From Escherichia coli (GTDB taxonomy: Bacteria; Pseudomonadota; Gammaproteobacteria; Enterobacterales; Enterobacteriaceae), in the NCBI RefSeq assembly GCF_003334335.1, contig NZ_QOWQ01000028.1: a stretch of DNA of 64,000 nt; one strand, written 5' to 3'. A program made the position numbers. Positions 1 to 3,000 of the stretch are shown piece by piece (position 1 is the stretch's first letter; each line of letters begins with the position of its first letter).

Positions 1-3000
1 CGCTGATAAGCCTGGTTGACGGGCAGGGTAATCCGGTGAGCGTGGAGGTCCAGTCCGTCACCGACGGCGTGAAGGTGAAAGTGAGCCGGGTTCCTGACGG
101 CGTTGCCGAGTACAGCGTGTGGGGGCTGAAGCTGCCGACGCTGCGTCAGCGCCTGTTCCGCTGTGTGAGTATCCGTGAGAACGATGACGGTACGTATGCC
201 ATCACTGCCGTGCAGCATGTACCGGAGAAAGAAGCCATCGTGGATAACGGGGCGCACTTTGACGGTGACCAGAGCGGCACGGTGAATGGTGTCACGCCGC
301 CAGCAGTTCAGCACCTGACCGCAGAAGTCACCGCAGACAGCGGGGAATACCAGGTGCTGGCGCGCTGGGACACGCCGAAGGTGGTGAAGGGGGTGAGCTT
401 TATGCTTCGCCTGACCGTGGCAGCGGACGACGGCAGTGAGCGGTTGGTCAGCACGGCCCGGACGACGGAAACCACATATCGCTTCACGCAGCTGGCGCTG
501 GGAAATTACAGGCTGACAGTCCGGGCGGTAAATGCATGGGGACAGCCGGTGCACATACCCATTCGATGACATTTGTTTCAGGTGGTTCCAGTGGTGCTCC
601 GGGAAGTGGATCACCTGATTATTCTAAATACAGTGTTAACACTTCTTCTGCAGGCGCTCATACGCACTCTGTATCGGGTACTGCTGCAAGCGCAGGTGCA
701 CACGCACATACTGTCGGTATTGGTGCTCATACGCACTCCGTTGCGATTGGTTCACATGGACATACCATCACCGTTAACGCTGCTGGTAACGCGGAAAACA
801 CCGTCAAAAACATCGCATTTAACTATATTGTGAGGCTTGCATAATGGCATTCAGAATGAGTGAACAACCACGGACCATAAAAATTTATAATCTGCTGGCC
901 GGAACTAATGAATTTATTGGTGAAGGTGACGCATATATTCCGCCTCATACAGGTCTGCCAGCAAACAGTACCGATATTGCACCGCCAGATATTCCGGCAG
1001 GCTTCGTGGCTGTTTTCAACAGTGATGAGGCATCGTGGCATCTCGTTGAAGATCATCGGGGTAAAACGGTTTATGACGTGGCTTCCGGCGACGCGTTATT
1101 TATTTCTGAACTCGGTCCGTTACCGGAAAATGTTACCTGGTTATCGCCGGGAGGGGAATATCAGAAGTGGAACGGCACAGCCTGGGTGAAGGATACGGAA
1201 GCAGAAAAACTGTTCCGGATCCGGGAGGCGGAAGAAACAAAAAACAGCCTGATGCAGATAGCCAGTGAGCATATAGCGCCGCTTCAGGATGCTGTGGATC
1301 TGGAGATCGCAACGGAGGAAGAAACCTTGTTGCTGGAAGCCTGGAAAAAGTATCGGGTGTTGCTGAACCGTGTTGATACATCAACTGCACCGGATATTGA
1401 ATGGCCAGCACTGCCGTAGGGTAAAACATATAAATTCTATAATTAGATGTATCTCTCCATTTACGGCAAGGAAGGGGGCTTGGAAGACGTAAAGCATCTC
1501 ACACCGAGATTATTTTTTATATGTCAGGTGTCTGAAGTTTTGCTTTGGCTCTTAAAATGGTTTGCCGCGAGGTTTTGAATTCCCGGGCAATGGCACTTAT
1601 ACTTACACCTGACTTAATTCGTTCGAATACCACCTGTTTCTGTTCTTCATTTAACACAGGTGGTCGACCAAAACGTTTCCCTGCGCCGCGGGCTCTTACT
1701 ATCCCGGAATGAGTGCGTTCAAGTAAAAGGTCTCGTTCAAATTCAGCGACTGCTGAAATTACGTGCATCATCATTTTTCCTGTTGGACTGGTCAGGTCAA
1801 TGCCCCGCAATGCTAAGCAATGCACTCTGATACCTGTTTCGGTCAGTTGTTCCACTGTTTTCCTGATATCCATTGCATTACAACCAAGGCGATCCAGTTT
1901 TGTCACAATCAATTGATCACCACATTTCAGGCGAGCAAGCAACCGGTTAAAACCAGGACGCTCACTGGTTGCTGCTGAGCCGCTAATGTGTTCTTCGATT
2001 ATTTGCTGAGGTTTGATTTTAAAACCTGCACTTTCGATTTCCCGGCGTTGATTTTCGGTGGTCTGATCCAGCGTTGATATCCGACAGTAAGCAAAAATTC
2101 GAGACATAGTGAGACTCTATACGAAATTGGTGTTCATATCATAATGCATCTCAGAAAATAATTTTGATTATTTTTGTGCATATTTGTATGTACACGTTCG
2201 AAAATAAACGAATGCGTATGCAACCCCGTAACTTTGGTGAGACCCAAAATCGATTTTGTGAAAAATGGCTTTAACTCGGTTTGTTTTTCGAGTTCCGGGC
2301 GGACTCAAGGAAGAAGAATAGTGTTGCGTGTTATTTTAACCAGATTTCAAGTTGTTTGGTCGTGGAAAAGTGGAGCAAAATGTTGTTAAAGTGGAAAAAT
2401 GATAAAAAAGTAAGTTTATTATATTACATTTTACCATTTAAATTTTGGTTGTCTTTAAGAACTGATATCGCTGTTTGTAATAATTCTTTGTTATCCAGCC
2501 ATGATTTTTTCTTTATGTTTCCTTCAATGTAATCAAGCAATGTTCTGGTATTGATAGGTCTTCCCTGTTTTGCTACTTCCACTACAGCATCCCCTAGGAT
2601 AATTCTGACTTCAGGAAGCTGCGCAGGGAACCACTTTAGGGTGTCTTTTGATTTCATGAATATATTCCTTAAAATATTATTGATTTTCATTGCGATATTG
2701 TATGTCTGATTCAGGATATGTTGACTTATACATCGGTTTTGTCTGGGTTATTGGATATGCCAATCCCTAATTTTATTAGAGCATGACTAAAAATGCTGAA
2801 TATGATAAGGAGCGAAGTGATTATCAGTATGCTGTTCATATAGCCTCGAATTAATAATGTGTTATATATGATATAGTTGACAATTTTTATCCTGGGTGTT
2901 CTTAAAGTTCGTAGATAAACATTGTCGTTTCAGGTATACAGGAATGCTAACAGATGGCGGCAAAAATCAGGCGGTTTATGGCGCAAGCTGAAGTGGCAAC

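Follow-up and report, generated by a model that had tools for sequence, protein, structure and literature searches.

The pinQ gene on a 64,000-nucleotide stretch of Escherichia coli DNA (NCBI RefSeq assembly GCF_003334335.1, contig NZ_QOWQ01000028.1; the whole stretch is referred to as the window in the following) is probably a leftover resolvase gene of a transposon rather than a tail-fibre invertase. According to this reading, to which we assign a probability of roughly 0.78, positions 1474-2307 would represent what is left of a Tn5403-like Tn3-family transposon, an 834-bp relic without transposase and with pinQ as its tnpR, the origin being read from comparison and the transposition event being deduced from it. 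By sequence comparison, the gene at 1517-2107 was shown to be pinQ from Qin, a cryptic prophage whose right end makes up the first part of the window with the gene order tfaQ-pinQ-ydfK-ydfJ'. K-12 Qin has the same genes, and 1029 of the complete E. coli genomes searched contain at least 80% of window positions 1-3450, annotated as tfaQ/pinQ/ydfK. Both the gene and its arrangement beside tfaQ are already known, as they have been annotated in thousands of genomes and studied experimentally. What is added here is the ancestry as a Tn3-family resolvase relic together with an anomaly in the active site, while the locus itself is known.

At the level of domains, PinQ combines a Resolvase N-terminal domain (Pfam, E 7.6e-36) with HTH_7 (E 8.6e-11), and NCBIfam yielded sub-threshold matches only. 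The nearest solved structures are Gin (E 2.5e-30) and the gamma-delta/Tn3 resolvases (E ~1e-22). A homology search retrieved a dense family of proteins with 76-84% identity from Enterobacterales, Shewanella and others, many of them plasmid-borne. The corresponding identity matrix is bimodal: PinQ shares 77-83% identity with the TnpR resolvase group but 37-41% with PinE, Gin and Cin, which are 75-82% identical among each other. TnpR proteins encoded beside Tn3-type transposases in Hafnia, Klebsiella and Shewanella are 77-79% identical to PinQ, and their genes are divergently oriented to those of 994-amino-acid transposases (DUF4158 plus DDE_Tnp_Tn3), with approximately 160 bp in between. Judged by these alignments, PinQ groups with the Tn3-family TnpR resolvases and not with PinE/Gin/Cin.

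The likeness to Tn3-family transposons extends to the DNA on both sides of the gene, where the following features were recognized:

1469-1473: AGGAA, left copy of a putative 5-bp target-site duplication
1474-1511, plus strand: terminal inverted-repeat relic beside tnpR, GGGGGCTTGGAAGACGTAAAGCATCTCACACCGAGAT, aligning to the transposon terminus GGGGTCCGCTTGGAAAACGGAAAATATCCCACGCTAAG
1517-2107, minus strand: pinQ, tnpR-type small serine recombinase of 196 amino acids with the catalytic Ser11 present
2112-2142, minus strand: relic of res subsite III, nearest to the start codon, with half-site TATACGAAATTG at 2118-2129 (13.4 bits)
2149-2180, minus strand: relic of res subsite II, dyad of 10.6 bits, CG core gone from both half-sites
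2195-2220, minus strand: relic of res subsite I (crossover), left half-site destroyed, dyad of 5.5 bits
2269-2307, minus strand: second terminal inverted-repeat relic, TGAGTCCGCCCGGAACTCGAAAAACAAACCGAGTTAAAG on the minus strand, matching the left repeat of a plasmid mini-element described below
2308-2312: AGGAA, right copy of the putative target-site duplication

The 180 bp located 5' of pinQ align column by column to the tnpA-tnpR intergenic region (res) of the family, in which three conserved dyads are built on the half-site TGTCCGAAACCG. On the half-site matrix of the PinQ family, intact half-sites reach about 10-17 bits each. In the general Tn3-type plan, res is positioned between tnpA and tnpR, which are divergent, and subsite III adjoins tnpR (PMC7157771), and the order in the window agrees with this plan, as subsite III lies next to tnpR and crossover subsite I is distal. 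The CG core is gone in three of the four half-sites of subsites I and II, and the subsite III half-site overlaps a -10-like TATGAT. The res of phage 2H10 is slightly better kept, with 14.8 bits for subsite II and 10.9 bits for subsite I. A further half-site inside pinQ (TGACCGAAACAG at 1834-1845, minus strand) is, with 14.0 bits, the best in the entire 64 kb and could be due to chance.

The two terminal-repeat relics at 1474-1511 and 2269-2307 are mutually inverted, of the approximately 38-bp GGGG...TAAG type, and the top matches to the reference repeats on their strands throughout the window (15 vs 11-12 for the next). The first of them stops where three Shewanella copies of the family and two plasmids diverge from one another. 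These Shewanella copies represent an element of 3815 bp whose 40-bp terminal repeats, GGGGTCCGCTTGGAAAACGGAAAATATCCCACGCTAAGAC, are perfect, and 5-bp duplications flank two of the three copies. In its architecture, the element corresponds to cryptic Tn3-family transposons like Tn5403, with Tn5403 compared by description: the literature describes transposition genes only as well as 5-bp duplications, and the resolvase has been automatically annotated as 'pinR'. At the outer ends of the relic, AGGAA is present on both sides and is likewise found in the diverged copies of 2H10 and of three further loci (L025, L026 and L027), the chance probability of such flanking being approximately 0.01-0.02 by our own estimate with end placement allowed for. 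In the window, the direct repeat comprises 7 bp (CAAGGAA at 1467-1473 and 2306-2312), of which 2H10 shares the 5-bp AGGAA only; the extra CA is probably coincidental.

No DDE open reading frame (ORF) for tnpA was found in the relic, where the repeat is separated from res by no more than about 50 bp. The order of the proposed element would be terminal repeat, ~50 bp, three-subsite res, tnpR and terminal repeat, with AGGAA on either flank. It would have been inserted between tfa and ydfK and moves along with that region in a group of lambdoid phages and prophages comprising Rac, Qin, 2H10, Turner, Tritos and mEp460. At a coverage of at least 80%, the 834-bp element was detected in 2732 out of 5426 complete E. 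coli genomes.

The same reduced form is also found on plasmids. An 852-bp, tnpA-less element of the order repeat-res-tnpR-repeat occurs beside sitABCD on IncK/IncF plasmids of E. coli and Salmonella. Over its entire length it runs collinear with window positions 1474-2307; it has the same internal deletion of tnpA and encodes a protein, WP_000086536.1, of 83% identity. Unlike the prophage relic, the plasmid copy exhibits a consensus res and Arg at position 76 of its protein but no target duplication, and it probably serves plasmid multimer resolution. At three such loci (L012, L029 and L030), the element has either a RelE/ParE toxin-antitoxin pair or IS110 on one side and the iron transporter genes sitABCD on the other.

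Diverged chromosomal copies (alleles of 91.5, 96.8 and 85%) were all found at the same tfa-ydfK site. Two copies, L027 from an E. coli prophage at prfC and L028 from a metagenome contig, are mosaics with a plasmid-type interior including Arg76. Phage-type parts are the repeat relics at both ends plus subsite I in L027, and the 3' end of the gene plus the adjacent repeat relic in L028. Because of this mosaic structure, the prophage versions with Arg76 stem from recombination and are not ancestral states. Copy L025 has a diverged coding region in which Cys76 is kept. Evidently, homologous recombination takes place between the copies of the element in prophages and those on plasmids.

Several observations weigh against the proposed origin. 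An empty site, in which the tfa and ydfK flanks are joined with one AGGAA, gave no match with a coverage of at least 80% in the 5426 E. coli genomes and 50,697 phage records; insertion by transposition is therefore inferred rather than shown. Both repeat relics are diverged, one having an insertion or deletion close to its outer end and the other TGAG in place of GGGG. Moreover, all full-length plasmid copies share one insertion site with identical flanks and no duplication, which leaves the mobility of the mini-form, as deduced from its ends, unproven. The designation 'Tn5403-like' relies on literature descriptions and the general structure of Tn5403 instead of an alignment with the Tn5403 sequence. 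Furthermore, the pinQ ORF is open in thousands of genomes, and comparison with tnpR genes of transposons gave a ratio of non-synonymous to synonymous substitution rates (dN/dS) of 0.15, an indication that some function has been retained. Finally, overproduction of PinQ was reported to increase inversion of the P segment of prophage e14 from about 30% in the wild type to 88% (PMC12529663), a result unexpected for an enzyme without the equivalent of resolvase residue R71.

The initial annotation had regarded pinQ as a Gin/Pin/Cin-type invertase lacking its alternative fibre set. While this classification does not hold in view of 37-41% identity, a native single-set layout and the Tn3-family landmarks, the underlying observation was confirmed. 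The gene, described as lying on the minus strand about 100 bp from the 3' end of tfa, is indeed convergent with tfa, their stop codons being 97 bp apart. According to the ORF listing, one stf/tfa set is present in the window; it reads toward pin and, as had been stated, has no inverted partner. Also the failure to recognize a crossover site was reproduced by pattern and matrix searches. The core pattern AAACCNNGGTTT gave four matches with at most one mismatch in the 64 kb, compared to 2.5 expected, and none of them before position 14034. With a half-site matrix made from the real gixL/R, cixL/R and pixL/R sites of Mu, P1 and e14, on which these sites themselves reach 27-30 bits, the top score in window positions 1-3500 was 5.6 bits, whereas shuffled sequence reached a maximum of 7.6 on average. 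Across the whole window, the top score of 11.8 bits reveals no site of genuine level, and no crossover site was obtained with the same matrix for the Rac, 2H10, Tritos and Turner loci.

Inverted repeats in positions 1-4000 are at chance level only, the best perfect pair being 12 nucleotides long with about 0.5 expected. The 72-bp annotated enhancer of P1 cin, an element of the Fis-dependent type, is recognizable in gin and pinE at the same position of the gene (E 1e-4 to 1e-6); in pinQ, this test, which is one of sequence similarity only, gave 7-mers only (E 8.6). Two opposed sets of fibre C-terminus plus tfa are not present in the window, Rac, 2H10 or Turner, each of which contains one set. 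In a BLAST analysis of E. coli genomes by Kirigo et al. (2025), inversions were found in e14 only and not in Qin or Rac (PMC12529663). With a single res, and that decayed, and without any gix-like site in the window, nothing would be recombined locally; from this we infer that inversion or excision in place is impossible and that pinQ is an orphan in cis. The earlier suggestion that the gene either is an orphan or acts elsewhere fits with the lack of a partner site in cis as well as with published action in trans on e14 (PMC12529663). The fibre gene at the pinQ locus is a stub in any case.

The remaining genes of this prophage end are arranged as follows:

1-549, plus strand: part of the interior of J, the gene for host specificity (tail tip); similarity with the full-length J of Turner and 2H10 ends at 549
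550-844, plus strand: C-terminal remnant of stf (side tail fibre) in a 102-amino-acid ORF at 536-844 with GAHTHS repeats
844-1419, plus strand: tfaQ, tail fibre assembly, 191 amino acids, the sole tfa copy
2424-2657, minus strand: ydfK (cold-shock protein), a gene of the phage lying beyond the putative insertion

Beyond ydfK, the ORF listing gives ynfT, a truncated chromosomal ydfJ and then ydfI. The J'-'stf fusion is out of frame with its joint at approximately 549/550, and relative to phage Turner about 5.1 kb are missing, namely the 3' end of J, lom and most of stf. In K-12 Qin the deletion is a different one, with nohA abutting stfQ.

A tblastn search of PinQ against phage genomes revealed copies of 98-99% identity in eleven records, among them those of 2H10, Turner, Tritos and mEp460. 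In 2H10 and Turner, genes J and lom are followed by a full-length stf (~1117 amino acids), tfa, a convergent pin and a ydfK-like gene, and the same single-set arrangement is present in K-12 Rac. Tritos has other fibre genes but the same pin-ydfK block. Here, a stub of about 110 bp from the 3' end of tfa (approximately 7690-7800) adjoins pin, followed by the unrelated fibre genes, and it seems that recombination within tfa has exchanged the fibre module, with pin-ydfK unaffected. Thus, the single-set layout J-lom-stf-tfa-> <-pin <-ydfK is native and found in viable lambdoid phages. As phages with complete fibres have no second set, the recombinase is not bound to any particular fibre module. 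The single stf-tfa set would then be an ordinary lambda-like fibre module and pinQ would never have owned an invertible segment, a view that forms part of the transposon-relic reading and shares its probability. The missing inverted partner is to be expected if pinQ is the leftover resolvase gene of a transposon and no tail-fibre invertase.

These data also bear on the idea that an invertible segment, consisting of a second Sv-tfa set plus crossover sites, was deleted from a decayed prophage that originally carried a Gin/Pin/Cin-type tail-fibre invertase. Such a history is hardly credible, even though the gene order resembles that of P1 cin minus the proximal set, the prophage is visibly deleted at the J'-'stf fusion and Gin is the best match among solved structures. 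Viable phages with full-length stf have the same single set, the protein shares only 37-41% identity with PinE/Gin/Cin, neither a crossover site (in the window, Rac or the phages) nor a detectable enhancer was found, and pinQ is bracketed by transposon terminal repeats and res.

Some further observations were made in the course of this analysis. A PinQ homologue of 60% identity is located between terminase and portal genes of Erwinia phage LS-2018a (8001-9071); it has res-like dyads of its own and is followed by two overlapping small ORFs (8597-8839 and 8823-9071), and no tail-fibre gene was seen nearby. In the window, a full-length Rfam match to IS009 (RF02111, 221 bits) lies wholly inside the tfaQ coding sequence at 1187-1385 on the plus strand, and the Hfq-binding small RNA STnc560 is matched (Rfam, 281 bits) at 12780-12993 on the plus strand in the chromosomal portion. 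A promoter and terminator scan provided nothing informative.

Returning to the enzyme itself, PinQ retains Tyr7, Arg9, Ser11, Asp72 and Arg73, while position 76, which aligns with Arg71 of the gamma-delta/Tn3 resolvases and the equivalent Arg of Gin, is occupied by Cys. The Tn3 catalytic set (Y6, R8, S10, D36, R68, R71) is thus incomplete. In the family, Arg is found at position 76 of 115 out of 120 cluster representatives, and Cys is confined to the PinQ/PinR clade plus one mosaic allele. Position 101 is Gly in all 120 representatives but Arg in the window allele, which additionally carries His115. In Tn3 resolvase, the exchanges R71A and R71K abolish recombination and slow down cleavage at least approximately 1000-fold (PMC2794168). 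Of the initial statement that the invertase looks intact, the full-length ORF remains, whereas function is doubtful on account of Cys76 and Arg101. On the DNA side, the crossover subsite and subsite II of res appear decayed, and the promoter-proximal subsite III half-site alone is well kept. PinQ would probably still bind DNA and may repress its own promoter, and any recombination promoted by it would be in trans and either weak or indirect.

Alternatively, pinQ and its upstream site could form a working resolution system acting on tandem prophages or phage-genome dimers. The retained subsite III half-site and promoter-like -10 would be in line with this, as would the plasmid mini-element copies, in which res is intact and has partition and toxin-antitoxin genes beside it. 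Such a function is nevertheless very improbable for the prophage copy: subsites I and II reach only 5.5 and 10.6 bits, with the CG core gone in three of their four half-sites, the catalytic Arg is replaced by Cys and, judging from lambda biology, packaging would suffer if lambda concatemers were resolved.

The most direct experimental data on PinQ derive from the study of Kirigo et al. (Nucleic Acids Research 2025), in which K-12 PinQ was reported to invert the P segment of e14, 1797 bp in length, and thereby to inhibit phage T2 (PMC12529663). Inversion of P creates StfE2, which blocks T2 adsorption, and deletion of pinQ sensitizes cells to T2 in a manner that requires stfP, stfE and e14 (PMC12529663). 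In a pinE mutant, P is locked despite intact pinQ and pinR (PMC12529663), so that PinE and not PinQ is the required catalyst at native levels. With regard to binding of PinQ to pix, no sequence support was obtained, as pix and gix are poor matches to the matrix of the PinQ family, on which the half-sites of pix do not exceed 6 bits compared to 10-17 bits for cognate half-sites. The K-12-type P segment, at a coverage of at least 80%, was found in 284 of the 5426 genomes, compared to 2732 for the pin element.

One could ask whether PinQ is a domesticated invertase, kept for inverting Gin-type segments of other prophages such as e14 P in trans. This appears unlikely. It would account for the increase in P inversion from 30 to 88% and for the T2 sensitivity of the pinQ deletion (PMC12529663) as well as for the conserved ORF with dN/dS below 1. 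It is, however, difficult to combine with the locked P segment of the pinE mutant in the presence of pinQ and pinR (PMC12529663), with the absence of an R71-equivalent Arg and, in the window allele, the exchange G101R at an invariant Gly, with pix half-sites of at most 6 bits and no target within the window, or with the rarity of the P segment relative to the pin element. Given Cys76 and the matrix data, the published flipping in trans by PinQ is harder to explain mechanistically, and a modulatory rather than catalytic role of PinQ may be considered a live alternative. As a tentative proposal that we hold with less than even confidence, PinQ and PinR would be fossil resolvases of a Tn3-family mini-element with crippled catalysis and e14 P would be flipped by PinE, with PinQ acting only as a DNA-binding or subunit-mixing modulator or else through an unusual active site.

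For the interpretation of prophage sequences, this implies that a recombinase encoded next to tail-fibre genes without crossover sites is not to be read as a host-range switch. The tail-fibre neighbourhood of pinQ would be an accident of transposon insertion, and its position beside tfaQ is ordinary, since it is annotated in half of the complete E. coli genomes. The name 'Pin', together with automated 'pinR' or 'DNA invertase' labels on plasmid-borne Tn3-family resolvases, spreads a weak resemblance of 38-41%. A paper on a Salmonella Senftenberg 'pinR' applies this label to the invertase gene of a fljAB locus and yielded nothing with a bearing on pinQ, the sequences being uncompared. The clade-wide loss of the catalytic Arg and the decay of res bear on the claim that PinQ is an active invertase in an anti-phage switch.

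Compared to known systems, the gene in the window is the same as K-12 pinQ (b1545, Qin) and pinR (b1374, Rac), with proteins of 98-99% identity. The neighbours, tfa-> <-pin <-ydfK/ynaE <-ynfT/ynaM, likewise agree with those of the window. The window allele differs from PinR and the phage consensus by G101R and Q115H; its differences from K-12 pinQ are four in number, all of them non-synonymous. With Gin (Mu), Cin (P1), PinE (e14) and Hin, PinQ has the fold, the domain pair and tail-fibre neighbours in common, but the 26-bp crossover sites, the enhancer, the second fibre set and the invertible segment of these systems are lacking. The order pin-> <-tfa <-stf recalls cin-> [Sv' U' / U Sv] <-Sc of P1 minus the proximal set, a resemblance that is coincidental and probably prompted the original idea of a missing set. 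The 852-bp plasmid element can be likened to the general class of non-autonomous Tn3 derivatives such as TIMEs and IS101, although the TIMEs described so far reportedly contain no resolvase gene. Compared to full Tn3-family transposons, the relic has no transposase and mutated repeats, its subsites I and II have decayed, and Cys takes the place of the catalytic Arg. At the same time, transposons with a 77-79% identical TnpR display a homologous three-subsite res, a terminal repeat after the stop codon and a 5-bp duplication, as in the pinQ relic.

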